This document shows positions 2-51,230 of a DNA stretch of 64,000 nt, piece after piece (position 1 is the first letter of the stretch; each line of letters begins with the position of its first letter). The notes under the pieces are model-generated. The model searched no databases, was not told the DNA's origin, and was given only the letters and a program-made list of their open reading frames with translations. Source of the stretch: a virus; the IMG/VR virus record IMGVR_UViG_3300027419_000023. The stretch is one strand, 5' to 3'. The position numbers were made by a program, and so were the translations under genes.

Positions 2-619
2 TAAATTTATTTTATTATACTTTAGAAAGAACCATCCAATTTTGTTTTTTGCTTCTGGCCTTATATATCCTTTAACCTCCCACCAAATATCTAATTCAGG
101 TAAATAAAAATCCGGTGTATATGTCCTATCTGTCGGTATAGAAAAAGACTTTGGTTCGTATTCCCATTTAATCCCGATTTTAGTAAGTACCGTAGCGACT
201 CGTGTCTCGTAACTAGACCTTAACCATATCTTTCTATCATTGTATGCAAAATAAGATCCATTTCCCCAATTACTTCCTATAGCAGATGATTTGCCATAAT
301 TCGGATTATTTTTTCCACTCATTCGTATTGCCTGAGCAATTCGCCTTTCAGGTGTCCATGAAATCCTCATTTTTTCTTTAGCTTCAGGAGAAATTTTCTT
401 CCCAGCATTTTTACCTTTCATTCCTTCTGACATTCTAACTAATGTTTCAGGTGATCTCTTCTTACCAAACAATGGATGTTTATTACCTCTCATTGCATTT
501 CCTTTGCATTTATTTGAACAGAATTTTCCGCCGTTACGAAGTATTCTAGACTTAATAATATAAAAGTCTTTTCCGCAAAATTCGCATTTTCTTATGGTTC
601 CACTTTTATTGTTTGGCAA
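2..619 (-). CDS. NUMOD3 + PD-(D/E)XK putative homing endonuclease (copy 1; runs off window start)
   Basis: Not in ORF track. Manual translation from TTG 619 after GGAGAA SD gives CEFCGK..FCSNKC, HPLFGKKRS, WLRSSYE..WEYEPK..TPDFYLPELDIWWEVKG. Confidence 0.8.
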   Translation of the reverse strand, partial: MPNNKSGTIRKCEFCGKDFYIIKSRILRNGGKFCSNKCKGNAMRGNKHPLFGKKRSPETLVRMSEGMKGKNAGKKISPEAKEKMRISWTPERRIAQAIRMSGKNNPNYGKSSAIGSNWGNGSYFAYNDRKIWLRSSYETRVATVLTKIGIKWEYEPKSFSIPTDRTYTPDFYLPELDIWWEVKGYIRPEAKNKIGWFFLKYNKINL

Positions 620-689: not shown

Positions 690-1826
690 CTATTTATATC
701 TAAATAAATTAGCTTGCGGGTCTTTCTTAGGCAACTCTGAAAACAATGATTTATATCGTTCATATACAATAGAAGACTTATGATTTTCAAAGTCCTTAAA
801 TATATTATTTATATTATCAAATAGCTGTAATTCTCCGATTGATCGAGAGTATTCGCGTAAGGTATCCTCATCATCTACCATACAGTTCATCATTCGATTG
901 ACTTCTATATATTGATACATGTCGTGATATGACAACAGGAGCGGAGTCATCGGATCAGTTTGATTATAAAGTTCTGATATAGTCATTTTACTACATACAG
1001 GACAATCACATGGAACATCATTCACTGCGTTAGCGAATTCTCTCCCAAGTCGTATACAATGCCGTACATCTAGTGGGAACCAGTAGTCCCGGAATCTAGA
1101 TCCCCATGACCACGAAGACGAATCGAAAGTAATCGATGCACCCGTATACTTAGCTAGCATAGCAAGTGATAGCATATTGCTTGGACCGCTTACCCCAAAG
1201 AAATGTGTATTCGTAAGTGGACTTTCTTCTCCCTTCTCTAGTAGATATAAGTATGCAAATACTTTCAAGTACACGTTAGTGCTTGGATGTACTCCTATAG
1301 CCCATCCATCGAAACTAAAGTCCTTTACTTCCTTATACCAAGTATCTATTTGGTCGAGGGTACGCCCATGTAAAATATTATAAAGAGCAAAATCATAATT
1401 AGTACGATTATCCTCGAAGAATTTAAAATTTTCCTTTGATTCTGATAGAGCGCCTTCAAAGTCTCGTACAGGAGGCACATCTAAGTTCATTCCAATGTCT
1501 ACATTATTTTCAAGCCACCTTAATACCTGCATAGGCGTAACATCTACCTGCCTGCCTTTCTTGCCGAATGACATTACTTGGAAGCCGCCGCTGTCCCCTA
1601 ATGTAATAACATCTTCAGGATAATTCATTACATTTTTGTGATCTAAGTCATCGGCTGTTATACGATAGTATGCGCTCATTAATAGAAATTTGTGATCAAA
1701 AAATGAGTTGCCAGACTCGAAAAACTTGAATCCAGATCCTTTATATTCAGTATTTTTTAACCATTGTACGATATTATTATCTCCAATCGCAGGAACGTAG
1801 TTAGATCCTTTAGGAATTATTTTCAT
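690..1826 (-). CDS. dpdA: TGT-family 7-deazaguanine DNA transglycosylase (DpdA-like), paralogue 1
   Basis: DSGGFQ, MNLDVPP, GWAIG, HFFG, FDSSS and CDCPVC..H zinc site; no PUA domain; near queE; start moved to ATG 1826 after GAGGT SD. Confidence 0.82.
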   Translation of the reverse strand: MKIIPKGSNYVPAIGDNNIVQWLKNTEYKGSGFKFFESGNSFFDHKFLLMSAYYRITADDLDHKNVMNYPEDVITLGDSGGFQVMSFGKKGRQVDVTPMQVLRWLENNVDIGMNLDVPPVRDFEGALSESKENFKFFEDNRTNYDFALYNILHGRTLDQIDTWYKEVKDFSFDGWAIGVHPSTNVYLKVFAYLYLLEKGEESPLTNTHFFGVSGPSNMLSLAMLAKYTGASITFDSSSWSWGSRFRDYWFPLDVRHCIRLGREFANAVNDVPCDCPVCSKMTISELYNQTDPMTPLLLSYHDMYQYIEVNRMMNCMVDDEDTLREYSRSIGELQLFDNINNIFKDFENHKSSIVYERYKSLFSELPKKDPQANLFRYK

Positions 1827-2973
1827 TTTTAACCTCTGGATAAGAGAACATATTTCGTTCAACTGAATCCGTATTCCTTAGTGTCATTAGATGTTTGTAC
1901 TTATTATAAGTTTTATCGCATCCATTGTTATGATAGTATTCTATCATAGATGATACTATTTTAACTGTTTTTTCTTCTCCAACTGATTTAGCGTATTCCA
2001 TGAATGCATAATCATCGGTTACTAACGCATTTACCATACGGTTGACTTCTATGTATTGATAGAGATTATGCAGCATTAACAGAGTGCCCACGTCAGTTCC
2101 GGTTCGTTGATACAAATCTTCAATTGTTAAGTTTCTGCATACTGGACAATTGCATGGAATGGATTTCATATTAAGTTTTGATGTTCTACCAAAATCAGTA
2201 CTAAATCTAATATCCTTAGGAAAATAAAATCTTCTATATATTGATCCGGTCGCATAAGAACTAGAATCAAATGTAATTGACGAATCGAAATGATTGCTCA
2301 GCATTGCCATTACAAGCATGTTCTTGATACCGCTTATTCCAAACATATGGAAGTTTGTATTTAAGTTAAGAGCGTCCTTTTCATGCAAAAACATGTAACC
2401 CAATGTTTGTAAATAAACATTATCTGCCGGCCTAACTCCTAGCGCCCACCCGTTAAAACTTTTAAATTTTTCAACGGCGCTATACCAAGTTTTCATTTCA
2501 TCTAGCGTTTTTCCATGCAACACATTATATAGCTTCATATCATAATTTATTCTATTTTTTTCAAATAATTCAAAGTTCTCAATAGATTCCTTTAATGATG
2601 CATTGAAATTGCTCCACGGAGGTACATCTAAATTCATCCCGATATCTGCATTAGCTTCCATCCAACGTAATACCTGTAACGAGCTTACTTCAATTTTATT
2701 TCCTTTGCTTCTAAAGTTCGCTATCTGAAATCCGCCAGAATCCGCTATAAGAATATAGTTTTCTGGATACTTATATTCATTTCTAAAACTTATAGTACCC
2801 TCTAGTAGTTCCCAATAGGTCGTAGTTAAAGCATAATTATATTGAAAAAATGAATCCCCTTGAAAGAATCTCATATCATGGTTTTTATATTTATAATTAC
2901 TTTTCCATAATTTACTTCTAAATACGTCTGCTACCGCAGGTATAAATATAGCCTTCTTTTCTAATGGTTGCAT
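1810..2973 (-). CDS. dpdA: TGT-family 7-deazaguanine DNA transglycosylase (DpdA-like), paralogue 2
   Basis: DSGGFQ, MNLDVPP, GWALG, HMFG, FDSSS and CNCPVC..HN zinc site; full-length paralogue of 690..1826. Confidence 0.82.
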   Translation of the reverse strand: MQPLEKKAIFIPAVADVFRSKLWKSNYKYKNHDMRFFQGDSFFQYNYALTTTYWELLEGTISFRNEYKYPENYILIADSGGFQIANFRSKGNKIEVSSLQVLRWMEANADIGMNLDVPPWSNFNASLKESIENFELFEKNRINYDMKLYNVLHGKTLDEMKTWYSAVEKFKSFNGWALGVRPADNVYLQTLGYMFLHEKDALNLNTNFHMFGISGIKNMLVMAMLSNHFDSSITFDSSSYATGSIYRRFYFPKDIRFSTDFGRTSKLNMKSIPCNCPVCRNLTIEDLYQRTGTDVGTLLMLHNLYQYIEVNRMVNALVTDDYAFMEYAKSVGEEKTVKIVSSMIEYYHNNGCDKTYNKYKHLMTLRNTDSVERNMFSYPEVKNENNS

Positions 2974-3046
2974 TAAAACACCTATAAAAATATAATCTAA
3001 AAATGTAAAAGAGATTCGAGTATAAAAAGGTTTTGCTCTCCGAGAT

Positions 3047-3712
3047 TTACGGCCGGAAGAACAATGGATGTCCGTTCTCGACGAATCTAAGATGTTCCGA
3101 AGCTATATTCACGATCCTCGGAAAGTCTCCGCCTCGAGCTATTAGTCCCGATCGTATATCCATTACTTCTTTTTCTGGATTGCCAACCTCGGTAAGTTTT
3201 CTTGCGATAGCACTTATAGTAGCGAACTTATTCCTCTTTAGGCTACTTACATCAAGTTCAGGTTTTGCTTCTGAACCCTCTGGAAATTCATGGACTTCAG
3301 TGTACTCGACACTCGGAACAGCTGGCTTAATAATAGCCAGTTTCTCCTTTATAACTAATTTACTAGATTCTTCTTCATCTGAGCGTTCGCTAGTTAATAC
3401 ACTATCATTAGAACTAGCTGGAGGCGTCTTAACAACAGAAGGCTCGGGAAGTTCCGAGTCTCCTGTTGAAGCAGCTTCTTCTGCATTATGGACTTCTGGT
3501 GTCACTATTTCTTTATGGGTGAAGGCTTGCCTCATCCTATTCCGGTATGTGGACGACACTGCATGCTTAGAGATTTCCGTTGCATTTTCAGGGATAATAT
3601 CCCCTATATGGAAAGCTCTATGGGTACTCTTTCCGTTCTCCTTTACAATTTTGTAGTATCTAACCTCTTTTCCACAGATCTTGCATATGTCTTTCTTTTC
3701 ATCGACTGACAT
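3047..3712 (-). CDS. Zinc-finger protein (CxxC..HxxxH) with acidic linker and helical C-terminal domain
   Basis: CKICG..THRAFH; paralogue of 3772..4167; start at ATG 3712 after GGAGTGA. Confidence 0.6.
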   Translation of the reverse strand: MSVDEKKDICKICGKEVRYYKIVKENGKSTHRAFHIGDIIPENATEISKHAVSSTYRNRMRQAFTHKEIVTPEVHNAEEAASTGDSELPEPSVVKTPPASSNDSVLTSERSDEEESSKLVIKEKLAIIKPAVPSVEYTEVHEFPEGSEAKPELDVSSLKRNKFATISAIARKLTEVGNPEKEVMDIRSGLIARGGDFPRIVNIASEHLRFVENGHPLFFRP

Positions 3713-3771
3713 TTTTATCACTCCATTACGTATTATTATAATTATTATAAATTTAATATTATGTCCGGAAC

Positions 3772-4167
3772 TCAATTCCGGACGATCTTTAGATATGGAG
3801 CAGCCAGCTCGATATCGGTCTGGAAATTGCTTCCCTTGGCCAGCATCTTTTTCCTCATCTCGGTTGCATCTTCTGCAGACATCCCGTTTTCCTTCATGAT
3901 ATTTATAGCTTCTGTTACCATCACGATGCGATTCATTCCAGTGGCGTCCAGCACCGGTACGGAGACGTGTCCATTATGGGGGATAGCATCCCGCAATCTC
4001 TTTCGGTATGTCGGGCTAATATCATGGATGTCGTTTAGCACAATCATTCCAGCCGGTACCTCTCCTGCATGGAAAGCTCTATGCGTAATCTTCCCATCGG
4101 CCTTAATGACCTTTACGTATTCGACGTTCCTTCCGCAAACCGGGCATATGTTTTTCTTAGTGTACAT
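3772..4167 (-). CDS. Zinc-finger protein (CxxC..HxxxH), short paralogue of 3047..3712
   Basis: CPVCG..THRAFH; both terminal domains align with the neighbour; BRE/TATA at about 4226-4242. Confidence 0.6.
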   Translation of the reverse strand: MYTKKNICPVCGRNVEYVKVIKADGKITHRAFHAGEVPAGMIVLNDIHDISPTYRKRLRDAIPHNGHVSVPVLDATGMNRIVMVTEAINIMKENGMSAEDATEMRKKMLAKGSNFQTDIELAAPYLKIVRN

Positions 4168-4361
4168 ATTTCATCATTCCTGCTGTAGTATCTTATACAT
4201 CAGCAATACTATATACGGCAGGCAAGTATTTAAAGGTTTTGCCATATGACCTAGCATTATTTGATAATATGTACGAAATCGATAACCATAAAAAATAGAT
4301 TGATTTTCTATTAGATGGACTGACGGAAATGCGCGACTAAAAAATATGAATTCGCGACGTG

Positions 4362-4823
4362 CTAGAAATCAAAAAGAGATTTACCACACTTCTTTTTAGG
4401 TTGCTTTACCTTTTCTATCTTTACTTCGCGAAGTCCTAGTAATTTTCTTTCCTTATTATCGCATCCTAATGATGTAGCTATTTGATTCCAATCAATATAA
4501 TCAAATACTTTCTTATTATGATTAAATTCTTGATCAGACCATTTGTAGTACTTCATTACGAGAGTTTTTTTCAATTCAAATGATTTATCTCTCGCTTCTT
4601 TTGATGACTTAGGATACTTTACATATACATTAGTATCTTTCATTCCTGATGCCAGCATATGCAGCGTAATCTGAGGATCCAAGAAAAATATATATTTATT
4701 TACTTCTTGACACCATGATAAATCTCGTATACTCGCGCTAGCCCATCGCAACAAAGGGTAGAGCATTTTGGTATCTACTTGAGATAATCTCTTTGCCTTG
4801 AGGTTATTAAAGCTATTATACAT
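4362..4823 (-). CDS. Putative second clamp-loader subunit (T4 gp62-like position and size)
   Basis: Directly follows RFC ATPase; KY(P)K..(K)YY pattern; C-terminal PIP-like KSLFDF. Confidence 0.6.
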   Translation of the reverse strand: MYNSFNNLKAKRLSQVDTKMLYPLLRWASASIRDLSWCQEVNKYIFFLDPQITLHMLASGMKDTNVYVKYPKSSKEARDKSFELKKTLVMKYYKWSDQEFNHNKKVFDYIDWNQIATSLGCDNKERKLLGLREVKIEKVKQPKKKCGKSLFDF

Positions 4824-4833
4824 GAATATAATC

Positions 4834-5700
4834 CTATTTCATTAGTTTGATCATTAAATTCTCTATAAGGATTTCTTTCCATGCTACTTGGCCCAACCAT
4901 TTATATGATTCGGCAATAGATGTTACCGCGCGCTGTTTATATTCAGAAGATTCTGAACTATCATATATTGTTTGATCGAGATCTTTCAATAATTGTTCAT
5001 AGTCTGGATGACTGTCGAGAATAATCTGCCTAATGGAATTAAAGTCTTTCTTTTTTATTAATTCAAATATTTTTGTTGATAATTTTATTTCACTTAATAT
5101 TCGTGATGATGTTATACCATCCTTATTTTGTTCTATTTTGTTTATAGCAGACCGTATATCATTCCCTGTTTGATCGACTATTTTTTTTAGTGCATCCAAT
5201 TCATAAGGTATTTTTTCATTTTCGCATATAAATTTCAGACGATCGACTATTTGTTCTTTCGGTATATTATCAAATTTAATTAATATACATCTAGATTTTA
5301 ATGGATCTATAATACGATTTATGTAGTTACATGTTAATATAAATCTAGTATTTCGCGAATATGTTTCCATGGTGTTGCGAAGAGCGGTTTGGGCGTCTGG
5401 AGTTAAATGATCGGCTTCGTCTAGAAATACTATTTTTATATTACTATCCATGCTTTTAGTCGATGCAAAGTCTCTTACTTTATCTCGCACGACATCAATA
5501 CCGCGTTCTGAGCTTGCATTCAATACTATATAATCGCATTTTAATGTATTTATAATAATTCTTGCCAGCGTAGTTTTTCCTATACCAGGGCTTCCATAGA
5601 GTAATAAGTGAGGTAAAGAGTCATCGATGTTAAAGGTATTATTAAATCCTATTAAATCTTCTATCTTTTGAGGCCGATATTTTTCAACAAGTAATGGCAT
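4834..5700 (-). CDS. rfcS: Replication factor C small subunit / clamp-loader AAA+ ATPase
   Basis: [32 protein letters not shown] motif. Confidence 0.95.
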
Positions 5701-5731
5701 TAAAATCCTCCTAAAAAAGTGAAGTTAAGGT

Positions 5732-6454
5732 TTAGCTAGTCTGTACTTCATCGACTGGAGATACAGGAGATACCATCCATTTGATGACACTATCTGTATC
5801 TTTACTGACTATCAGCATCGGATAGTCGTTATTAAAAGAAATATTAACTCGTCCTGTTATAACGGATATAAATTCTAAGAAAGTGCATCCATATTTCCCG
5901 ATAACGTCCTTATAGTCGGCTGATGTTTTTATAGTTATCTTATTAAAATTATCCTCGCCTGTTCGGACATATAGTATCCTATCTTTTACTTCTGCAATGA
6001 CTCCTATTTTGCTGGTACCTAATATTTGAGTCGACTTCTTAACATTTGTCCAAATAGCGCTATCTACTTCGAATCCTCCGTCATGTGCTAAGGTAGGCAA
6101 TTCTTCGAGGTTACATTCCAAGAATTGTTCATCTGGAATAATCAAATCTGCATCTATTCCACTAGATGATATATGGAAAATATTTTCTCCTTGCCGGGAC
6201 AATTCTATAGTACCATTCATAGTGCCTAATATGCTAATTAAGGTAGACATATTTTTAATTGGTACATTCATTTCATGATATTCGGTGAAGTTACTAATTT
6301 TCAGGAGACCCGTAGTCGCACCGGTCATCGTTATGTCTTTTAGTGTAACTACAAGACCTTCAGGACCGAACTTTAAAATTCCATCTGTTATACTACCATT
6401 TATACTTACTTTCTTTATAAAGTCTAATAGTGTCTTTGCGTTGATTTTCGTCAC
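5732..6454 (-). CDS. DNA sliding clamp (PCNA/gp45-like)
   Basis: 240 aa beta-rich, ends in PMLI..IKWMVSP like PCNA; adjacent to RFC. Confidence 0.8.
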   Translation of the reverse strand: MTKINAKTLLDFIKKVSINGSITDGILKFGPEGLVVTLKDITMTGATTGLLKISNFTEYHEMNVPIKNMSTLISILGTMNGTIELSRQGENIFHISSSGIDADLIIPDEQFLECNLEELPTLAHDGGFEVDSAIWTNVKKSTQILGTSKIGVIAEVKDRILYVRTGEDNFNKITIKTSADYKDVIGKYGCTFLEFISVITGRVNISFNNDYPMLIVSKDTDSVIKWMVSPVSPVDEVQTS

Positions 6455-6546
6455 TTATAATACCTCGCTAAAAAATAGAATTCGTATAATTCTATGCTAG
6501 TTAATCTAGTTAAAATAATAGTATATAAAGATTTTGGTTGTTCTTT

Positions 6547-7197
6547 CTATTTTCCTAAGTTTCGGATATGTAATCTATCTGAAAAATTTGTTCCCAATCG
6601 AAGAGATGTTTTCCATGTATTTGGACCGCTAATACTAAGTTCATGAGGTGTTGCTCCGCCTGGCATTACAAAGATCTTGCCGACATCAAGATTAAATTCC
6701 TGAATTAAAGATCTTAGTGTTCCTTCGCTATACATCCAGGGAGCTGCGCCTACTACAAACTTAAATACGCAATTATCAATAGATTTCCAGTTATTAAAAA
6801 ATTCTCGTCTCTGTTGTAAGGATTTAAAGCAGTCTTGTTTAGGACTAACCATTATAAATCGGAAATACTTTGCAAATTCGGAATCTAAAGGAATAATGCC
6901 ATTAGTTTCTAAGTCTACTTTTTTATCAGTTAAGTTGTCTAATAATTCTTTTAATTCCTCTTTTTGAAGTAATGGTTCTCCTCCGGTGATAACGAGTTGG
7001 GTGTTTGCAGGATGTCTTCCTAAATGTTCCCGAATCCGTTGTAGTAAGTCCGGTATAGTTATTTCTTCGATTTTTATCGCAGGGGTATCGCATCCTTTAC
7101 ATGAAAGTTGACATCCGGCTAGTCGAACGAATAAAACCGGCCTTCCTTGAATTGGCCCTTCGCCCTGAAGGCTATAAAACAAATCATATATCTTCAT
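6547..7197 (-). CDS. queE: 7-carboxy-7-deazaguanine synthase (radical SAM)
   Basis: SLQGEG, FVRLAGCQLSCKGCDT (CxxxCxxC), ITGGEP, LETNG, VSPK, RLH. Confidence 0.92.
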   Translation of the reverse strand: MKIYDLFYSLQGEGPIQGRPVLFVRLAGCQLSCKGCDTPAIKIEEITIPDLLQRIREHLGRHPANTQLVITGGEPLLQKEELKELLDNLTDKKVDLETNGIIPLDSEFAKYFRFIMVSPKQDCFKSLQQRREFFNNWKSIDNCVFKFVVGAAPWMYSEGTLRSLIQEFNLDVGKIFVMPGGATPHELSISGPNTWKTSLRLGTNFSDRLHIRNLGK

Positions 7198-8880: not shown

Positions 8881-9825
8881 TCAGTCCTGAATCACATTTT
8901 TACTTATTAAATATTCGTTTAACGGTATTCCGATACTAGTTATGGGTTCATTACTATATAAAAATTTTATTATATCATCATATTGTAAAACAATTAATTT
9001 TTTATCAGGATATTTATTATTAAACATAATCATCTTTTGTTTAGAATCATCTGTTAAATATCCTTTTACTTCAACGTATAAATCATACTCCGGTAAATAA
9101 AAATCTGGATGCCAGATAATATCATTCTGCAGTTCTATTCGTTTTTCATATTCCCATGCAACTGTTTGTTTTTCTAATTCAGTTGCAAACAATATTTCAT
9201 ATGACGATCTTAACCATATAATAACATTATTTGATTTAGTAAAATATGCTCCGTTACCATGTCCGGATCCAGGATATGCAGGTTTCCCATAACGAGGATG
9301 ATCTTTTCCTGATATTCTGGGTATCTTTGATAGATGCTGTTTTGTTTCTTCTGTATGATGCTTACCATAAAACGGGTTTTTATCACCAACTAATTTACCC
9401 GTCAATGCTTTTGATATTCTTTCTCCTCGTAATCTTAGAACATCTTCTGAAATATTATATTTTTTACCTAAATGAGACTCAGAGCAATTACGAGCTTTAA
9501 TGCCAAATTCTTTCATCCAATGGCATATAGTATTTTTTTCAATATTAAATTCGCGTTCTATTTGTTCATAAGACTTTCTATGAAAAATATATTGTTCTTC
9601 TAACCATTCTTTGTTCCTAAATTTTATTATGTCAATATTATGACAAAGATCAATAGCTTCTAATAACGTTCTTTTTGGTATACTAAATTTAGCTAACCAC
9701 TTAGATATTGTGACATTAGTACATCCAACTTCTTTAGCTATTTGATTACAAGATCGTTTGAGTATAATATATTGATTAAATAACCATTCTTTATTATTAT
9801 ATTTATTAGAATATTTCTTTACCAT
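8881..9825 (-). CDS. HTH/NUMOD3 + PD-(D/E)XK putative homing endonuclease (copy 2)
   Basis: KEWL..QY repeats, NPFYGKHHTEETK, WLRSSYE, HPDFYLPE, VEVKG. Confidence 0.8.
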   Translation of the reverse strand: MVKKYSNKYNNKEWLFNQYIILKRSCNQIAKEVGCTNVTISKWLAKFSIPKRTLLEAIDLCHNIDIIKFRNKEWLEEQYIFHRKSYEQIEREFNIEKNTICHWMKEFGIKARNCSESHLGKKYNISEDVLRLRGERISKALTGKLVGDKNPFYGKHHTEETKQHLSKIPRISGKDHPRYGKPAYPGSGHGNGAYFTKSNNVIIWLRSSYEILFATELEKQTVAWEYEKRIELQNDIIWHPDFYLPEYDLYVEVKGYLTDDSKQKMIMFNNKYPDKKLIVLQYDDIIKFLYSNEPITSIGIPLNEYLISKNVIQD

Positions 9826-10115: not shown

Positions 10116-11156
10116 CTATAACTCATCAATTTCCAAATATTCTTTCAATATTAATCCAGCATATTCTAAAGTTATTTTATTTTTTATCAATAAATCAATA
10201 TCTTTCTTTTGTAACACTCTTAATTTAATAAAAGGATATTTATTATAGAACTTAATCATTTTACGTTTTGCATCATCCGTTAACCATCCCTTTATTTCGA
10301 TATAAAGATCATACTCGGGCAAATAAAAATCAGGATGCCATATATCATTGTCTAATTCAAACAATTTTTCATATTCCCATACACATTTAATCTTATCAAG
10401 ATAATCAGCAAATACAGTTTCATAAGATGAACGTAACCATACAGTAGATCCATCTAATTTAGTATGATAAGAACCTTTACCAAATCCCGTACCGGGTCTA
10501 GCAGGTTTACCGTACATATAATGATCTTTACCAGATATTCTTGGCCAGAGAGCCATTTTCCTACGAGTTTCTTCAGATGGATTAGAAAGTTTCTTGGATA
10601 ATATTTGTTTGGTTTCTTCAGTATGATGCTTTCCGAAAAACGGATTCTTTTCACCTGTTCTACCATACATCGGATTATTAGAACCAGTATACTTTCCTTT
10701 TCTGGAAATCGACATATGCTCTCGTGCTTCTGCATCCAACGTCCAATGCTTTCCAAAATTTGGATGGTTTTCTCCTACAAATTTTTTACGGGAAAGAGAT
10801 ATCTTCCTACGAGTTTCTTCAGATGGATTAGAATTTGCTTCCGATATCTTACGTTTCGTTTCTTCGGATCTTAGTTTGCCATATATGGGATTATTTTCAC
10901 CAGAAACATCTGCGTGATTTTCAGACATCTTTTTCCTAGTATATGAAGTTTTGCACTGTTCTGATGATGGTCGTATGCTAAAACCAAATAATTTTATATA
11001 TTTACCTACTATATAATTGGTAGTATTTAATTCTTTTGCAATAGACGAAATTGATCGAAATATCATATTATATTGTTCGTTTATCCAATCATAATCAGTA
11101 AGAAGTAATTTCGCTTCTTCGGTTAATATAGAATCTTTCTTTTTTAAGCGTACCAA
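10116..11156 (-). CDS. NUMOD3 + PD-(D/E)XK putative homing endonuclease (copy 3)
   Basis: Multiple SEETRRKIS and NP.YG repeats, WLRSSYE, HPDFYLPE, IEIKG; probable TTG start at 11156 after GGAG. Confidence 0.8.
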   Translation of the reverse strand: MVRLKKKDSILTEEAKLLLTDYDWINEQYNMIFRSISSIAKELNTTNYIVGKYIKLFGFSIRPSSEQCKTSYTRKKMSENHADVSGENNPIYGKLRSEETKRKISEANSNPSEETRRKISLSRKKFVGENHPNFGKHWTLDAEAREHMSISRKGKYTGSNNPMYGRTGEKNPFFGKHHTEETKQILSKKLSNPSEETRRKMALWPRISGKDHYMYGKPARPGTGFGKGSYHTKLDGSTVWLRSSYETVFADYLDKIKCVWEYEKLFELDNDIWHPDFYLPEYDLYIEIKGWLTDDAKRKMIKFYNKYPFIKLRVLQKKDIDLLIKNKITLEYAGLILKEYLEIDEL

Positions 11157-11407
11157 GAATTCCAGACTCCTCTTATATTCATACACTCATATAAAATGAA
11201 TAATATTGAATAAGGTATATTTTTTGCTTTTAAAAAGCCTATTAACATATAGCCATTTGAACCGATCCATAGAAAAAATCCAAGACCTCTCCAAGAAGCA
11301 CTGATATCAGAAGAAAATGTTGCACCTAATACAGCAACTAACATAGTTAAATATTCTAATGGATGTATTTTGATGTCATTATAGATATCAGTAATGCTAT
11401 TATTCAA
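11144..11407 (-). CDS. Small 3-TM membrane protein (PnuC/SWEET half-transporter-like)
   Basis: Three TM segments; GFFLWIGSN and GVWNSW pattern. Confidence 0.55.
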   Translation of the reverse strand: MNNSITDIYNDIKIHPLEYLTMLVAVLGATFSSDISASWRGLGFFLWIGSNGYMLIGFLKAKNIPYSILFILYECMNIRGVWNSWYA

Positions 11408-11559
11408 TTACTCACTTCCGTCTCGAAGTCAAACAAATCCATCTGCTCGTGTTCATCTTCCTGGACTTTTAGAAAACATATCAGTCCGTAACCGCGTTCC
11501 TGACTGTCTGGATCCTTGAGGTTACGTCCGCATCGCTTACATTTATAAAAAGTAGGCAT
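11404..11559 (-). CDS. Small Zn-ribbon protein (DUF6011-like) with C-terminal PIP-like motif
   Basis: Manual translation MPTFYKCKRCGRNLKDPDSQERGYGLIC..EQMDLFDFE. Confidence 0.65.
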   Translation of the reverse strand: MPTFYKCKRCGRNLKDPDSQERGYGLICFLKVQEDEHEQMDLFDFETEVSN

Positions 11560-12220: not shown

Positions 12221-12412
12221 TTATTTCACTTCCTGTAACCAAGGCATTAAATTTTTAGCGGCTTTTTCCAGATCTTCTTCCGGAATCTCTTCCCGGGAAG
12301 AGTACATTCCTCCGCATTCAGTGCAGCGTGAGTGGCCAACTACTTTATTATAGTGCCAGAGTGTTTTTCTCATGCAGCTCAAGCAAAATCTTTCTGTATC
12401 CGGTGGTGGCAT
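12221..12412 (-). CDS. Small Zn-ribbon protein
   Basis: CLSC..CTECGG. Confidence 0.55.
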   Translation of the reverse strand: MPPPDTERFCLSCMRKTLWHYNKVVGHSRCTECGGMYSSREEIPEEDLEKAAKNLMPWLQEVK

Positions 12413-12467
12413 GTAACATTATTCCTCCTCTAGTTATAGTATTTAAGTAGTTTATTTAAGTTATTAC

Positions 12468-12908
12468 TTATAAAATTCCTGATGCTCTTTCAAGGCGTTT
12501 TCTATTTAGATCCTCTAATGGCATACAAATATTTTCTGATATCGCTAATGAATATAAAGATTTAGCTACTCTAATTGCATCACTTTCTAATACATATACA
12601 CTAGAATATATGCCACCCACTCCCATTACACTGCGTGGTTTCAACGTAGAAGATTTGAATAATTTGCGTATTGTATCATTTGTTGATCTATCAAATCCAC
12701 GTTCGGATGTATGCAATAAGTCCAATTCTACATATGCATATTTTCTTCGTAGTGTTATTGCGACAAACGGTATTCCGTTATCTGCACACCATCCCCAATA
12801 TCGATTCGAAATTTTATAGGACTGATTTTCACGGATAACAAATTTGGCTTCTATAGATTCCTCAAGAGTGGTATGAGGAACTAACCTATCAGATATTTTT
12901 GCGATCAT
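12468..12908 (-). CDS. Hypothetical protein
   Basis: ORF with GAGG SD. Confidence 0.6.
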   Translation of the reverse strand: MIAKISDRLVPHTTLEESIEAKFVIRENQSYKISNRYWGWCADNGIPFVAITLRRKYAYVELDLLHTSERGFDRSTNDTIRKLFKSSTLKPRSVMGVGGIYSSVYVLESDAIRVAKSLYSLAISENICMPLEDLNRKRLERASGIL

Positions 12909-12921
12909 TATTATTCCTCCT

Positions 12922-13281
12922 TTACTTATTGTACTCGAAACCTATCCCAATTTCTATATTCTCGCCAGTTTCCTGAGAAATTTCATTGGTATGTTTTATG
13001 GCAGCTAATACAAAATCAATATAATCTGGATTATCTACGGATATGTAATAAATTCCCCCAAAATCCCAACCATCTGGACTTGCCCAGACTCCTATTATAA
13101 TTTCATCATCTTTGTATATTAATTCAGGAAATTCTTCAGAATCTCGAAGATGATTTCCAGATTTAAATTCTAGGATGCCACGGTCAAGTAGTAATACCGT
13201 AGGGAATCCAGAATCCTGTAACTTTCTTTGCAAATTGGCCATAAACTGTCTTGCTTGAATTATAATTTCTTTAGACTTCAT
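12922..13281 (-). CDS. Hypothetical protein (probably leaderless)
   Basis: BRE/TATA at 13301-13320, about 25 nt upstream of ATG. Confidence 0.6.
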   Translation of the reverse strand: MKSKEIIIQARQFMANLQRKLQDSGFPTVLLLDRGILEFKSGNHLRDSEEFPELIYKDDEIIIGVWASPDGWDFGGIYYISVDNPDYIDFVLAAIKHTNEISQETGENIEIGIGFEYNK

Positions 13282-13319
13282 AAGTTAGTTAACGGTTTTG
13301 TAGTATTTAAAACTTTTGG

Positions 13320-14246
13320 TTAGTAATCATTGCTAATTATTCCGCCGTATTGCTCAGCAAATCTCCAATCCAATTGTATATTAACAGGCTTATTGTCAAT
13401 TACCGAATAGGACAATATAAGACCGCATACATCAGCTCCGCCGTAACTTGCCAAAATAACTTCATCAGGAGCTTGAAAGCAACCAACTCCGATCAGTACC
13501 TTTCCCATGAAGGAGGGCACATAACAACACGAGTGACAATGGCCATACAAAAATATGGTGCCTATCTGTTCTTCGGACATCAATTGGAGTGTTCGTGTCT
13601 TAATACGCTTATTACGATTTTGACCTGGTGCGGCACACGAACCTCCGCCGTGATTTACATTGATCAAGATGTTGCCAGGACCAACTATTGGAGTTCCCTT
13701 ACGGATATATGTCAAATCAGGTCTTCTTATTACCATTTCGTTACAGAAATCGTAATGCCAGTCAAATTTGGCTAAGGAAGCCTCGTGGTTACCCTTAGTA
13801 ATGATATTCGTTGCAAAACCGCTAGGATAATATCGTTGGAAATATTGTTCAAATTCGCTGGTGGTATTAAGGAATCTTACTTCATTATGGTACTTTTGAT
13901 TCATTAATCCGTCAATTGCATCGCCACAATGAATTAAGAAGTTAATTCCGCGTTCTTTACAATCCTCGATAAAATTATCAAAGACGGTTTTCTGCTGGTA
14001 TATGGAACCCCAGTGCGTATCAGAGACAACTGCAATTTCATAGCGTTGCAATTCTTCATTACTATAGTCAGTTCTTGATGATCGGGGTGAAGGTAGGCCA
14101 ACTTCGTACCACTTGCATTTCCAGCGGTCTCTTGAAACTCTTACACACCTAGCAGAATCATTGAAGTTACCGCAACGAGCATACACCCGTAACATGTCGT
14201 ATTCGGAAAATTCATCAAACGGCTTTTCTGGGATAGTTATTACCAG
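13320..14246 (-). CDS. Calcineurin-like metallophosphoesterase
   Basis: SDTH, GDAIDG, GNHE, HG, GHCH; frame open to CTG 14246 behind AAGGAG. Confidence 0.85.
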   Translation of the reverse strand: MVITIPEKPFDEFSEYDMLRVYARCGNFNDSARCVRVSRDRWKCKWYEVGLPSPRSSRTDYSNEELQRYEIAVVSDTHWGSIYQQKTVFDNFIEDCKERGINFLIHCGDAIDGLMNQKYHNEVRFLNTTSEFEQYFQRYYPSGFATNIITKGNHEASLAKFDWHYDFCNEMVIRRPDLTYIRKGTPIVGPGNILINVNHGGGSCAAPGQNRNKRIKTRTLQLMSEEQIGTIFLYGHCHSCCYVPSFMGKVLIGVGCFQAPDEVILASYGGADVCGLILSYSVIDNKPVNIQLDWRFAEQYGGIISNDY

Positions 14247-14269
14247 AAGATCAGCTCCTTGCTATTGAT

Positions 14270-14596
14270 TTAATCAGTGCACAATTCATTAGATCCACAC
14301 TTTGGACAAACTTTATTAGGATCCTTGCAATATTGATCATAAGTTGTCCATTTCATTTCTCGAATTCTACGACCGAAATATTCATACCAACGCGCAATAT
14401 TTTCCTGCATTGTCATGTCCGGACGAATTGGTATACCATTGATAAATTCGCAACAATGAATTGTTTCGTTTAATTTGCTCGTTTGCAATCCAAATAGCGT
14501 TTCATCATATTCTCTAGATAAAAATTTCGACGGGTTATAAGACTTATCATAAAAATCGTCTTGTTCCCATCCACACTTATGACAATGTACGAACAT
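14270..14596 (-). CDS. Zn-ribbon protein
   Basis: CHKCGW..CPKCGS. Confidence 0.6.
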   Translation of the reverse strand: MFVHCHKCGWEQDDFYDKSYNPSKFLSREYDETLFGLQTSKLNETIHCCEFINGIPIRPDMTMQENIARWYEYFGRRIREMKWTTYDQYCKDPNKVCPKCGSNELCTD

Positions 14597-15194
14597 GATT
14601 ATTAATCTCCTTTTTATTAGAAACTAATATGGTTTCAATACTATTCGTTCCCATGATAACGTTAACTAGGGATTTGACATTATAACCTTGATCTCGGAGT
14701 CGTTCTGCAGCACCATCCTTTTCGATTATAGTATATGATCCGATTACATTAATATGGTTACTTTCTAAGGTATCGACAATAACAGAAATTGTTCCACCTG
14801 TACTAACAACGTCATCTATGATAATAACATTACGTCCTGGCTTAATACTATTGATGTACATAGTTGACTCCGAATAGCCAGTTTGTTGATGGACTTCTAG
14901 TTCTCCGGGTAATCCATATTTTCGTTTTCTAGCAACCACGTAAGGTCTATCCATTAGTGTACTAACCACTGTTGCGATGGGTAAGGCCATTGCTTCTGGT
15001 GCAATAATGAAATCAAGATTTGAATGGGTTACATCGCGTTCTATTAGTTCTTGTAGTCTACGAGCTGTTTTAAAAAGAATTTCTGGATCAATTGGCAACG
15101 CGCCGTCTGTTAGTGCATGAACAAAGTAGTTATATCCATTTTTATTTATAATAGGAGATTCTTTTATAGAATCTATTAAAAATTGAAGATTCAT
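14577..15194 (-). CDS. hpt: Archaeal-type hypoxanthine/guanine phosphoribosyltransferase
   Basis: YNYFVHALTDG, EAMALP, RKRKYGLPGE, QQTGYS, IIDDVVSTGGT PRPP loop. Confidence 0.88.
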   Translation of the reverse strand: MNLQFLIDSIKESPIINKNGYNYFVHALTDGALPIDPEILFKTARRLQELIERDVTHSNLDFIIAPEAMALPIATVVSTLMDRPYVVARKRKYGLPGELEVHQQTGYSESTMYINSIKPGRNVIIIDDVVSTGGTISVIVDTLESNHINVIGSYTIIEKDGAAERLRDQGYNVKSLVNVIMGTNSIETILVSNKKEINNHVRTLS

Positions 15195-15196
15195 AT

Positions 15197-16021
15197 CTAA
15201 GTCCTCATAATTCTGTCCGGAACAAAATCAATAAACTTATTAACCACATTTTCCAAAATCTCGACATCGGCAATACAATGTGTCACAATGTAGTCTAATG
15301 CGTCATTATCCCTATTTAATACCACATTATTCCATTCGATTAGACCCAGTTTTGTTTTGTCTGGTGAAGCATCTGGATTAGACACTTGCAGAATTTGATT
15401 TATGCGTTCTAACCGTCTTGTGGATGGATTAGTTACTCGTTTTACCGTGAAATATAAATCTAATGACTTGATCTTTTTAAGTGGCTGAATTCCGTGATAC
15501 AACGCACGGGTTCTTATAAATGGTATGTCAAAACGATTTCCAAAATATGTCACTACACCATCATAGGTAGTTAATTCTTCGTTTAATTTTATCAAAATTT
15601 CTTTTTCTGCTTCCACTAAACTGTTATTAGATAAATTAATTCTAAATATCTTTGGATCTTCTCTGGAACCGTAAGTTCGGATAACAGCACAAAGCATAAT
15701 CCCAAAATCAGATTTTAGAGACGTCGTTTCTATGTCCAGTACAGCCACTTTCGATGAATCTGGGTTTAGAAACAGATTAGAACTCATTGATTTCGTGACT
15801 TTCTTAGTTCGGGCAAGTAATTTCGGTACATTAATTACATCTGGTAAAATAGAATCATTTGTTTTAATATTTTCCAATTCTTTTTTATTATTATAATACC
15901 TTATGTATGTTGGATGAGTTGTATTTGTAAATAAAGCACACTTTCGGAATGATCCACATTGTTGATATAGATCGTCTAGTTCTTTGAATGTCCATTCGGA
16001 TAACGGTTTTAATTCAGTCAT
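15197..16021 (-). CDS. RNase H-fold 3'-5' exonuclease (YprB/RNase_H_2-like) with N-terminal HTH-like segment
   Basis: LDIETT, YFGNRFDIPF, SLDLY, HCIADV. Confidence 0.8.
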   Translation of the reverse strand: MTELKPLSEWTFKELDDLYQQCGSFRKCALFTNTTHPTYIRYYNNKKELENIKTNDSILPDVINVPKLLARTKKVTKSMSSNLFLNPDSSKVAVLDIETTSLKSDFGIMLCAVIRTYGSREDPKIFRINLSNNSLVEAEKEILIKLNEELTTYDGVVTYFGNRFDIPFIRTRALYHGIQPLKKIKSLDLYFTVKRVTNPSTRRLERINQILQVSNPDASPDKTKLGLIEWNNVVLNRDNDALDYIVTHCIADVEILENVVNKFIDFVPDRIMRT

Positions 16022-17219: not shown

Positions 17220-17503
17220 AACCGGTAACTCCGTGGTAGAATTTTATTGTCATGATTTAAAGTTTTCTCTTCAAACCATCTACCAATATTTCCGCAAGTA
17301 TTTTTATCATCTCGATAATATCTCAATGCATATGGCGATTTTATAAAATTAAACTTACCTGTCACTAGGTTAATAGGTGCTAGATTATTACTATGCCAAC
17401 ATTGATGTTGTCTATTAATTTCTCCATGATTAGGTGCACTTGGATCGAATTTGTAATACTTGCAATCACAACAATATCTCTTTATCATACCAAATCTCCT
17501 CAC
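17216..17503 (-). CDS. Small Cys-rich protein (family with 43321 and 49820)
   Basis: CCDC..C..NLVTG..CGNIGRWF. Confidence 0.55.
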   Translation of the reverse strand: MRRFGMIKRYCCDCKYYKFDPSAPNHGEINRQHQCWHSNNLAPINLVTGKFNFIKSPYALRYYRDDKNTCGNIGRWFEEKTLNHDNKILPRSYRL

Positions 17504-20004
17504 TGAAATGCAAATAGTCCTGTCTTCTTTGGTAATACTACTTTTTGTTTTTCAGTATTTAATACTTTTGGTACGCTTTCGAATCCGAAGAGACTGCTCT
17601 CCGTAAGTTTCCTTTTGCCAGTCGCTATATTTATGCCTATAGCCGAGAACACTCTTTCAAGGGGTGGCAACAATTGATGCTCTATATAGAAACTAGTATC
17701 AATACGACCGTCTGTCTCCTTAATATGCTCTAAGGTATCAACCATGAGACTAATGCCATCCTTAGATGCACCAGGTAAAGCCATATATCGAATACGATCA
17801 CCTAGTCCGGGTAGATTCTCACCACGTTCTCTCATTTTCTTATAACAAGTTACATGAGGTTGGATATTCTTGTAGCCTTCTATATTGCCGATCTTACGGC
17901 TAAGAACAAGTTTTTCTGCTAGTTCTGGATTAACTCTAATATCCTGTAGGGTTTTAACGGATAATATAACCTCATTGGTATATTTCCAGGCTTCGTCTAC
18001 TTTACCTTCGCATAGGATTAAATGAAGTACCTTATCCATGCTTTCGCCGACTAATGAAACCCAATCCCTCCTGCGTGTTTCGATGCCCCTGTACTTAATC
18101 TTGTCTTTCCAACCATCTTTTCCTTGTTCGAATATCCACATGGCATAGCGTTTTTTCTCAAAGATAATAGCACGTTTCGCAAAACACTCGAAATCGATTT
18201 CCATGGGCGGAGGCAATTTCGTTAGCATACTGTCATGGATGATTTTAGCGCACTTTTTACTCTCATCTGGGTCTGTTACTTTATTTAACCGGATAAACAC
18301 AGAATCTGTATCCCCGCCAACTACATGACAATCTACTAGTTCTTCCGCCGTTTTTCTAGTCAACTGAATCGCCATACGACCTACAGAAGTCACTGAATTA
18401 GCAAGTCTTGGATCGTAAAGCCTACCCCGAATAGCCCCGGTGTAGCCGTAAAACGAATTTAACAAAATTTTCACACTGTATTGTTGATTATCGTAGAATT
18501 CTCTCTCATTTTTGTCACTACACGACTTCATTAGTTTTTTTAATTCTACTCTTTTGTTGTATAGGTTAGTCAGAATCCTTGGCATTATACCTTCGTACAC
18601 GGAATGATCGGTATATCGTACTTCATTAGGAGCAGTTATTGTTTTGACATCTGTTTCTTCCTCATTTATGATAGACGACCAGCATATATTATAAGCTCGA
18701 ATAGCTGATGGATAAAGACTTTTATAGTCCATGATAATTAGGTTTTCGTGTAGCCCGCGCTCCGAATCAAGCACTTTACCTCCTGTTACTTTCTCGACTT
18801 TTTTGTCTTTGTCGTTGAGAGGCCATAGTCTTCCTTCCTTATAGAATTCTCGAAGTAACATTGACTCTATACGGCGAGACTGACCACCATTGATTGTCTC
18901 ATGAAGTAATAAGCCACAGTCTTTACTAATATTGATGTAACGGTCTATTAGTTTAAGTTCCTTTATGATGTCTTGGAGTAGGTCAGCATCTCGTCCCGCA
19001 TAATCAAGAAAGGACCGTAACTTACTTTCGGATCCGTTTAACCATATTTCACGCATTTCACTGGCTTTAATGTCTAGTTTTGGTCTGTTAAGTAATGTTT
19101 TGGAAACATTTTCCAAGCTATATGAAGTCAACGAATAATTTAGTTTAATTGCATTTAATAAGTCTATGTAAGCCCGACCTACCATATTAACTTCTTTACT
19201 TGCACCAAACGCTCTTATCTGGAATGGAGTTCCATCTCGGCCTAAATCATTAGGAATACCTAATATTTCTAGTCTCTTCTCAATATACGGAAAATCGAAT
19301 GTATCACCATTAAAAGCCATTACGATATCTGGATCATATTCTTTGAATATGTCCATAAAGGTTGATAACATCCAGAATTCATCAGGGAAATATTTGATGT
19401 TTTCGGTGTCTTGTCCTGGCTTAGCAACTAACACAAGGGTATTTCCAGTGTTGAAACTTATCGAAATTATGGTTATAGGATCTCTTTCCGGTATAGGCAC
19501 TCCAAATTCGGGAGGCAGTACTTCAATATCCAAGCCAAGAAATCGTAACGGAGCATTTTCCAGGATATTATGTAAGGGCTTCACGTTATTGCTATCAGCT
19601 TCGAGCCACTTCATGCCCCATAAGTCATTATCAGTCAGGAACCGAGCTGTAGCATATAGCACGTCAGCTTCGAAAATATCAACTATAGCTGGATGCCTTC
19701 TTAAGGAGTCTCGGATCTTCGGGACATCACTAGGTCTATTGACATAGACTTGCAGGACTTCTGTTCGTTCCTTTTGAAAACCAATTGGTAGAAATTTATA
19801 GTCCTCGAATACATCAGTAACTTCAGGAAGTTCCGACAGCATTTGCTTGACTTCGCTAGAGTTTCTTGGTAAAATATAAAAGTATGGCCTGAATCCAAGG
19901 ATGTCATGCTGAATAGAATTACCAGACTTATCGCGACCATATAAAGTAATCACCGGACCACGGCCACTATTCCTATATTTAGTGGATATTAATTGAAATT
20001 GCAT
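17500..20004 (-). CDS. polB: Family B DNA polymerase, archaeal type, intein-free
   Basis: LDIE, FNGDTFD, DYKSLYPS, KILLNSFYG, GDTDS, KKRY; ATG 20004 after GGAG. Confidence 0.97.
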   Translation of the reverse strand: MQFQLISTKYRNSGRGPVITLYGRDKSGNSIQHDILGFRPYFYILPRNSSEVKQMLSELPEVTDVFEDYKFLPIGFQKERTEVLQVYVNRPSDVPKIRDSLRRHPAIVDIFEADVLYATARFLTDNDLWGMKWLEADSNNVKPLHNILENAPLRFLGLDIEVLPPEFGVPIPERDPITIISISFNTGNTLVLVAKPGQDTENIKYFPDEFWMLSTFMDIFKEYDPDIVMAFNGDTFDFPYIEKRLEILGIPNDLGRDGTPFQIRAFGASKEVNMVGRAYIDLLNAIKLNYSLTSYSLENVSKTLLNRPKLDIKASEMREIWLNGSESKLRSFLDYAGRDADLLQDIIKELKLIDRYINISKDCGLLLHETINGGQSRRIESMLLREFYKEGRLWPLNDKDKKVEKVTGGKVLDSERGLHENLIIMDYKSLYPSAIRAYNICWSSIINEEETDVKTITAPNEVRYTDHSVYEGIMPRILTNLYNKRVELKKLMKSCSDKNEREFYDNQQYSVKILLNSFYGYTGAIRGRLYDPRLANSVTSVGRMAIQLTRKTAEELVDCHVVGGDTDSVFIRLNKVTDPDESKKCAKIIHDSMLTKLPPPMEIDFECFAKRAIIFEKKRYAMWIFEQGKDGWKDKIKYRGIETRRRDWVSLVGESMDKVLHLILCEGKVDEAWKYTNEVILSVKTLQDIRVNPELAEKLVLSRKIGNIEGYKNIQPHVTCYKKMRERGENLPGLGDRIRYMALPGASKDGISLMVDTLEHIKETDGRIDTSFYIEHQLLPPLERVFSAIGINIATGKRKLTESSLFGFESVPKVLNTEKQKVVLPKKTGLFAFQ

Positions 20005-20022
20005 GAGATTCTCCAATGGTAA

Positions 20023-24177: not shown

Positions 24178-24235
24178 TTAATTCACCTTCAAGTAGTAAT
24201 AGTGCTTTTGAGAATAAATAGTTTTTGGTTGGAAG

Positions 24236-27216: not shown

Positions 27217-27290
27217 ATCACTCCTTTGTACTTCTTTATACTATACTCGATGAGAATAAATAGTTTTTGGTTGAATATCAAAAACTAATT

Positions 27291-51102: not shown

Positions 51103-51230
51103 ATGTATTACCTCTAGTAAGAATAAGTACTGCTAGAATAAATAGTTTTTGGTTACGCTAAATAATATAGATAAATATTATAAAAATAGAAATATAATAT
51201 TAATTAAAAAATAATGAATAAAAAAGCTAA

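Follow-up and report, generated by a model that had tools for sequence, protein, structure and literature searches.

The window analysed here, a stretch of 64,000 nt (IMG/VR record IMGVR_UViG_3300027419_000023), carries between positions 690 and 7,197 two tandem genes for DpdA-like enzymes of the tRNA-guanine transglycosylase (TGT) fold. They share a block with genes for a sliding clamp, for its loader and for the synthesis of preQ0, and their products bear at or near the C-terminus a short peptide that recurs on the DNA polymerase and on a clamp-loader subunit of the same genome. The source of the window is probably a large uncultured tailed virus, myovirus-like, with anaerobic archaea as hosts. 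The coding strand of the whole block is the minus strand, on which every gene of the region lies, and read in this direction the order is queE, clamp, RFC-like loader gene, small loader subunit, two Zn-ribbon genes, TGT and TGT, as an earlier reading made from the sequence alone (the sequence-only reading) had proposed. Genes past the window edge were read on L001, a 68-kb contig identical to the window sequence, which adds PTPS (QueD), GTP_cyclohydroI (FolE) and QueC (L001, genes 12355-15681) and a possible D12-like methylase. Since queD, folE and queC adjoin the block on this contig, a complete preQ0 operon encloses the genes for clamp, loader and small subunit, and its queE gene (6547..7197, minus strand) is recognised by phrog_2076 (4.8e-39), TIGR03963 (4e-20) and the domains Radical_SAM and Fer4_12.

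Paralogue A of the TGT-fold pair (690..1826, minus strand) comprises 378 aa from an ATG at 1826; an alternative upstream start is a TTG at 1862, and the gene caller on the identical contig gives 378 aa. Paralogue B (1810..2973, minus strand; 387 aa) shares 17 nt of its 3' end (1810-1826) with the beginning of paralogue A. Both proteins match the Pfam family TGT (PF01702) with E-values of 4e-10 and 3.5e-9, corresponding to 39.7 and 36.6 bits against a curated cut-off of 26.3. In an alignment of 34 diverse homologues the residues D78 (in DSGGFQ), D116 (LDVPP), D235 (FDSS), C273/C275/C278 and H301 are invariant, and the catalytic and zinc residues align to D95, D130, C279/C281/C284 and H307 of the Pyrococcus horikoshii archaeosine enzyme ArcTGT (1iq8). 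Judged by these residues, both paralogues are catalytically intact TGT-fold enzymes with the CxCxxC..H zinc site kept, and the earlier description of TGT-fold paralogues beside a preQ0 gene stands, extended to a complete preQ0 operon. The alignment with the 582-aa ArcTGT spans its chain residues 91-323 only, no further Pfam domain is found in the paralogues, and both stop soon after the catalytic domain, lacking the C-terminal tRNA-binding domains (PUA) of ArcTGT.

With respect to described families, PADLOC yields no DpdA match for the TGT paralogues, PHROGs recognises neither these paralogues nor the clamp, the small loader subunit and the Zn-ribbon proteins, and the best NCBIfam match of the TGTs is TgtA, far under its cut-off. 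Comparison of the TGT family with the DpdA of Cellulophaga phage phi38:2 by hhalign gives a weak match (probability 26%, E 7e-4), and no sequence similarity is detectable to DpdA4. Among cultured phages, tblastn recovers only remote jumbo-phage TGTs, which are longer proteins with lysine-rich tails in a different gene context. With the genes of the full preQ0 pathway adjacent, the paralogues most likely modify DNA; the viruses studied so far that carry 7-deazaguanine synthesis genes all use a DpdA on DNA (PMC10516641). Long TGT homologues were considered as fusions to replication proteins, which was ruled out as they carry inteins instead (Intein_splicing, LAGLIDADG; for instance P0155 and P0157).

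The 240-aa protein encoded at 5732..6454 on the minus strand has no match in Pfam (PCNA families), PHROGs or NCBIfam. Its AlphaFold2 model, built on an alignment of 29 homologues, reached a predicted local distance difference test score (pLDDT) of 88 and a predicted template-modelling score (pTM) of 0.85, and all top matches listed by Foldseek against the PDB are PCNA (E 3e-14, template-modelling scores 0.71-0.82). Moreover, the sequence profile finds PCNA among PDB sequences at 4e-4. A coil at about residues 106-127, where model confidence is lower, falls in the region of the interdomain connecting loop. As modelled, the protein is a PCNA-fold two-domain clamp with an interdomain connecting loop, and the earlier assignment of this gene to a clamp is thereby upheld. 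The following gene (4834..5700, minus strand; 288 aa) encodes an AAA+ clamp loader resembling the RFC small subunit (phrog_168 clamp loader, 5.5e-73; NF001679 RFC small subunit, 1.6e-65). Directly after it lies a gene of 153 aa (4362..4823, minus strand), whose product is probably a gp62-like small loader subunit. It has no Pfam match at E 0.01, and PF16790 (Phage_clamp_A) occurs in 29-34% of the members of its nearest protein-atlas clusters (score 0.91), which is taken as a lead only. The designation as a second clamp-loader subunit thus gains from the position after the RFC-like gene and from a conserved tail, the gp62-like identity itself staying at probable.

Short terminal motifs link the proteins of this block to the replication machinery of the virus. 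Paralogue A closes with ..PQANLFRYK, in which QANLFRY (696..716, minus strand) lies on the conserved columns Q-x-[NGS]-[ILM]-[FW]-x-[FYW]. Paralogue B carries ERNMFSY (1840..1860, minus strand) nine residues from its C-terminus and ends in ..ERNMFSYPEVKNENNS, the nine residues past the motif overlapping the start of paralogue A (1810-1826). The small loader subunit terminates in KSLFDF (4365..4382, minus strand). The family B DNA polymerase (PolB; 17500..20016, minus strand; phrog_262, 6e-93) has two such motifs in its tail, ESSLFGF (17581..17601, minus strand) and, one residue from the C-terminus (..KTGLFAFQ), KTGLFAF (17506..17526, minus strand). In addition, a DUF6011 protein of 51 aa (11404..11559, minus strand; PF19474, 8e-8) contains QMDLFDF five residues from its end (11425..11445, minus strand, by our own count); it is possibly a small clamp-binding protein acting as regulator or competitor. 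All motifs named in the sequence-only reading are present at their positions, and the shared tails are real and well above chance.

The pattern [LM]F.[FY] occurs within the last 16 residues of five of the 98 minus-strand open reading frames (ORFs), namely both TGTs, the small loader subunit, PolB and the 51-aa DUF6011 protein, as compared with 0.37 expected from internal positions (Poisson 4e-5), a test that is post hoc, the motif having been defined from the same data, so that weight is put on the comparative data. Internal matches number five in 17,115 positions, one of them being the other PolB motif. Set against the canonical PCNA-interacting peptide (PIP) pattern Q-x-x-[ILM]-x-x-[FYW]-[FYW], positions 1 (Q), 4 (I/L/M) and 7 (F/Y/W) are conserved family-wide in the TGT tails; the tail of paralogue B has E at position 1.

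The comparative data comprise 137 homologues for paralogue B and, for paralogue A, 1,019 matching library representatives. Across 112 full-length homologues, the linker columns before the tail hold 0.7-1.3 bits each, and the seven final occupied columns are, in order, Q (2.2 bits), x, N/G/S (2.1), I/L/M (2.65), F/W (1.6), x and F/Y/W (2.3). A Q-anchored motif lies within the last 12 residues of 57/238 full-length homologues, as against 0.17% of internal windows and 0.5/238 shuffled tails, and a looser core motif stands exactly at the C-terminal end in 63 proteins. In two related contigs, L003 and L005 (7669-11149), three tandem TGT paralogues replace the two of the window, and the tail is kept on each copy (NMMSF.., NLFRSW, NLFGWQNL); single-copy homologues also keep it.

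The same type of tail is maintained on the replication proteins of related genomes. Among homologues of the small loader subunit, a C-terminal [ST]L[FL]xF is found in 6/6 distinct sequences, and both LFxF motifs persist in the PolB of three relatives of 65-87% identity. For B-family polymerases, it is established that short C-terminal motifs bind clamps (PMC3201878). Furthermore, PolB and DpdA tails can be paired in four lineages: LFAF with LFRY in the lineage of the window, IFDF with IFNF in that of contig L015, SRFF with NQFF in the marine lineage of L058, and VLSW with VLEF in that of the cultured haloarchaeal virus HVTV-1. The true pairing scores best of the 24 permutations, and by this comparison of sequences the flavour of the DpdA tail follows the PolB tail of its own genome. 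Given conservation and co-variation, a chance origin of the tails was rejected. As a separate observation, the PolB of one relative (L082/L083, G009) is interrupted by an insertion of ~400 aa in one open frame, probably an intein.

The gene order queE-PCNA-RFC-small subunit-(Zn, Zn)-TGT-queD-folE-queC is shared by the IMG/VR contigs L003, L005, L008-L010, L012 and L013 and by a contig of a metagenome-assembled genome (MAG) labelled Nanoarchaeia (L071), giving about eight related loci in all. TGT homologues devoid of the tail, 39-47% identical, occur in small elements or on contigs assigned to Methanotrichaceae bins; DUF5906 or a Methanothermobacter-plasmid-like domain is encoded there, and a clamp, a loader and que genes are all absent within 10 kb. 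The loss of the tail where no clamp is nearby fits a tethering of the enzymes to a clamp.

Cultured viruses provide an independent view of the same arrangement. In HVTV-1 and HCTV-1 (Druskaviridae), the preQ genes adjoin those for RFC-S, PolB and RFC-L, and the gene after folE encodes DUF6610 (6.9e-61), that is, DpdA4 of Hutinet et al. 2023. The DNA of HVTV-1 contains dPreQ1 at about 30% of G (PMC10516641), and a divergent clamp with its loader is reportedly among the proteins encoded by the virus (PMC4889955). Its PolB ends in VLSW, RFC-L in VLDF, a Dam-like D12 methylase in VLDF and DpdA4 in VLEF; of the 808 ORFs in 85 kb, these four alone match the strict tail pattern, and the structural half is free of matches. 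In HCTV-1, PolB, RFC-L and DpdA4 likewise share a V-L-x-[FW] tail, DpdA4 ending in VLDF, and a V-[LM]-x-[FY] end is kept in 11/12 DpdA4 orthologues from metagenomes. As far as the literature was searched, the shared tail of HVTV-1 and HCTV-1 is not mentioned in work on these viruses. HVTV1_83 was considered as the divergent clamp and set aside, as it bears no similarity to the PCNA profile. Several non-polymerase enzymes of the HVTV-1 replication block carry a tail of the PolB/RFC-L type: the D12 N6-adenine methylase (VLDF), a GNAT protein (PLDF) and an HNH endonuclease (VLDY) were noted at L085 6941-7792, 6441-6938 and 3388-3684.

In bacteriophages, the modification mdPreQ1 was shown in Cellulophaga phage phi38:2 (PMC10516641). 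Its que cluster is followed by one small gene and then by the phage beta clamp, and its DpdA is flanked by a CxxCxxCC (DpdM-like) protein ending in QVNLF and a ParB-like protein ending in SVNLF. The bacterial clamp-binding pattern is Q-x-x-L-F, and the two phi38:2 ends fit this pattern by sequence. A VirE-like protein and a 221-aa protein of the same phage (L087 5348-6574 and 19001-19666) end in DEDDVPF and EEDDLPF, like the acidic C-terminal tip of the bacterial single-strand-binding protein (SSB). In phage CAjan (L088 11693-13793), dpdA, a 75-aa gene, a divergent beta-clamp-like gene (DNA_pol3_beta_2 at 1.7e-4, under the cut-off) and PolB follow one another, and DpdA ends in ..RVMELF, which is regarded as a lead only.

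From these comparisons of sequence and gene order, it appears fairly probable that the tails act as clamp-client peptides: by holding the DpdA-like enzymes on the viral PCNA, they would couple base exchange to replication. In this mechanism, the N-[LM]-F-x-Y peptide, presented after a poorly conserved linker, would constitute a viral clamp-interaction motif, namely a PIP-box variant of the form Q-x-x-h-F-x-aromatic, through which the enzymes dock at a hydrophobic pocket on the viral PCNA ring. As the clamp would be loaded at primer ends and left on the new duplex, docking would concentrate DpdA on freshly replicated DNA, where it would swap guanine for preQ0 made by FolE, QueD, QueE and QueC. 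With three subunits, a homotrimeric ring could hold PolB and one or both paralogues at once, and the benefit would be a quick and efficient modification of progeny genomes against host restriction. In this chain we infer that the tails bind the clamp, that exchange happens at the fork, that DNA is the substrate and that the virus benefits.

Several observations weigh against such a tethering. The TGT tails are devoid of the second aromatic residue (position 8) of the canonical PIP box, paralogue A having K there, and the motif of paralogue B is internal by nine residues. The expectation of motif conservation holds for the conserved island in the 112 homologues and fails in several close relatives, in which the tail is degenerate (N-L-x-x-hydrophobic; NLSAIL, NLTSIM, NIEGQF), and in one clade of nine sequences, from which it is lost entirely. 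Likewise, the proposed contrast between clamp-encoding and clamp-lacking genomes is seen in tail-less homologues without a nearby clamp, but these form a single clade, so that tail loss counts as one evolutionary event. Distant marine homologues end in ..FF or ..FFG, and their fragmentary records yielded no RFC, PolB or PolA. Finally, the TGT family could be assigned to none of the described DpdA subfamilies (bDpdA, DpdA1-4) by the PADLOC, hhalign and tblastn comparisons, and DNA as the substrate is read from gene context alone.

Among the alternatives, the best placed, which we nevertheless regard as unlikely, is that the tails dock on another hub, such as host PCNA, the single-strand-binding protein or another replisome component, instead of the viral ring. 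A conserved and shared tail does not by itself identify its receptor; moreover, the marine ..FF homologues show no clamp loader nearby in their fragmentary records, and Pfam PCNA_N finds no match in HCTV-1. On the other hand, no partner other than a clamp is established as common to a clamp-loader subunit and a PolB C-terminus (PMC3201878), the modification operon encloses the genes for clamp and loader, and HVTV-1 is the virus with a reported clamp of its own (PMC4889955). Homologues in small methanogen elements, which depend on host replication, have no tail, and this too speaks against a host receptor.

Bacterial and eukaryotic TGTs act as dimers, and the tails might accordingly serve the enzyme itself, be it in dimerisation of the paralogues, as an autoinhibitory plug or for stability, the likeness to the PolB and loader tails being coincidental. 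The tandem sets of 2-3 paralogues would suit such a role, and the motif is just 4-7 residues long and was defined post hoc. Nevertheless, tail flavour tracks the PolB of the genome in four lineages, the unrelated DpdA4 and the Dam-like methylase of HVTV-1 share the tail of PolB and RFC-L, and single-copy TGT homologues, too, bear the peptide, all of which renders this explanation improbable. Least plausible is a modification of tRNA (archaeosine- or queuosine-like) with an incidental clamp neighbourhood, for which the best solved relative, an archaeosine tRNA-guanine transglycosylase, the sub-threshold TgtA match and the absence of matches to described DpdA models may be cited, and which is opposed by the missing tRNA-binding domains of the 582-aa ArcTGT, by the lack of tRNA genes found in the window, by the use of a DpdA on DNA in all tested viruses with 7-deazaguanine synthesis genes (PMC10516641) and by the difficulty of explaining a replication-type tail on a tRNA enzyme.

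Beyond the tethering of the window enzymes to their own clamp, virus-encoded clamps may be general landing pads for DNA hypermodification enzymes: two DpdA families without detectable sequence similarity to one another, a Dam-like methylase, and phage DpdM-like and ParB-like proteins each seem to have taken over the tail of their own replisome. This broader reading of the sequences is put forward tentatively, at somewhat less than even chances.

Compared with known systems, the module shares with the viral DpdA1-4 systems (PMC6884629, PMC10516641) a TGT-superfamily enzyme encoded with FolE, QueD, QueE and QueC and a presumed swap of G for a preQ0-type base against restriction. It differs in that its family is nearest to the ArcTGT catalytic domain, in its 2-3 tandem paralogues, in the clamp and loader genes within the operon and in the clamp-client-like tail. 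The module of HVTV-1 and HCTV-1 comes closest in layout, as here, too, an archaeal tailed virus places preQ genes beside RFC and PolB and the DpdA4 tail equals that of PolB and RFC-L. However, DUF6610 is without detectable similarity to the window TGTs, its tail reads V-L-x-F/W, and the pathway proceeds to preQ1 (QueF). With PIP-box clients and PolB tails (PMC3201878) the window motif has in common a peptide at the terminus with Q in position 1, an aliphatic residue in position 4 and an aromatic one in position 7, a flexible linker, and its occurrence on polymerase and loader subunit alike, whereas it lacks position 8, has F or W at position 5 and belongs to a base-exchange enzyme as the client.

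Two cellular processes offer further parallels. Eukaryotic DNMT1 has a PIP box and carries out replication-coupled DNA methylation via PCNA. Complexes for the maintenance of N6-methyladenine (6mA) that are linked to PCNA have also been described (PMC11761967). As proposed for the window, a DNA-modifying enzyme on a sliding clamp would in each case mark new DNA behind the fork; PCNA-coupled methylation, however, is cellular and epigenetic and employs a methyltransferase, whereas the window system would be viral and directed against restriction, with a transglycosylase that exchanges the whole base. DpdB is a ParB-like ATPase that acts with bacterial DpdA, and in phi38:2 it is the ParB-like protein beside DpdA that carries a beta-clamp-type tail. 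The window, in contrast, has no ParB-like or DpdB gene, and the proposed helper would be the sliding clamp. In the bacterial Dpd system, DpdA needs help on duplex DNA (PMC10164549).

Published work on DpdA describes the modification as post-replicative only and leaves clamps unmentioned (PMC10516641), and our literature search turned up no work that connects clamps with DpdA or with deazaguanine modification. The sequence-only reading had likewise known of no such coupling for DpdA, and as far as this search goes, base-exchange enzymes are not known as clamp clients. A clamp-docking tail would offer a concrete mechanism, open to inexpensive tests, for how the DpdA of phages and archaeal viruses reaches a large share of the genomic guanines in the short time left before the DNA is packaged or restricted: it predicts a stimulation of base exchange in vitro by clamp and loader and poor modification by tail-less enzymes, and it names the residues to mutate. 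If virus-encoded clamps are indeed general landing pads, 7-deazaguanine modification would be co-replicative and not merely post-replicative, which would help to explain the strong differences in modification level between systems. Tethering would also extend the list of sliding-clamp clients to base-exchange enzymes, and enzymes that modify DNA in step with replication could then be recognised in metagenomes simply by their tail. Since the signature is present in cultured HVTV-1 (dPreQ1) and phi38:2 (mdPreQ1), the idea can be tested without culturing the window virus.

Between the loader and TGT genes lies a paralogous pair of Zn-ribbon genes (3047-4167, minus strand), whose products could be accessory DNA-binding factors of the module. 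Zn-ribbon protein 1 (3772..4167, minus strand) has 131 aa, and Zn-ribbon protein 2 (3047..3712, minus strand) has 221 aa as called on L001; the latter has no family match in Pfam, PHROGs, NCBIfam or PADLOC and is syntenic in L003, L005, L010, L013 and L071.

Concerning expression and host, a motif resembling the B recognition element (BRE) and TATA box, CCAAAA-NN-TWTTTAWWY, has 12 matches in the window as compared with 0.62 expected, and 11/12 are on the coding strand, upstream of genes. By pattern match, one site precedes paralogue B (3020..3036, minus strand) and another the clamp gene (6521..6537, minus strand); further examples are found at 24212-24228, 27254-27270 and 51136-51152. These sites suggest archaeal-type promoters. 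The closest MAG labels among related contigs are archaeal, and on such sequence grounds a tailed virus of anaerobic archaea is likely. A bacterial host was judged less likely in view of the BRE/TATA-like promoters and the archaeal labels of related MAG contigs.

At the edge of the window, a 373-aa ORF begins with a homing-endonuclease-like N-terminal part (2..619, minus strand; NUMOD3 4e-13, endonuclease I-like), behind which QueD (PTPS) is fused in frame (window 2-619, L001:12355-13476); relatives have a plain QueD. Two more NUMOD3 endonuclease genes are situated at 8881-9825 and 10116-11186. Other genes of the window encode a helicase, a primase, NrdD and a baseplate wedge protein. A 683-aa protein (25165-27216, minus strand; phrog_1735, 3.7e-261) shares 54% identity with proteins from Bacillus Tsarbomba-like phages and has matches in 542 phage records, Salmonella and Klebsiella phages among them, being unusually well conserved given the strong divergence of the other genes of the virus.

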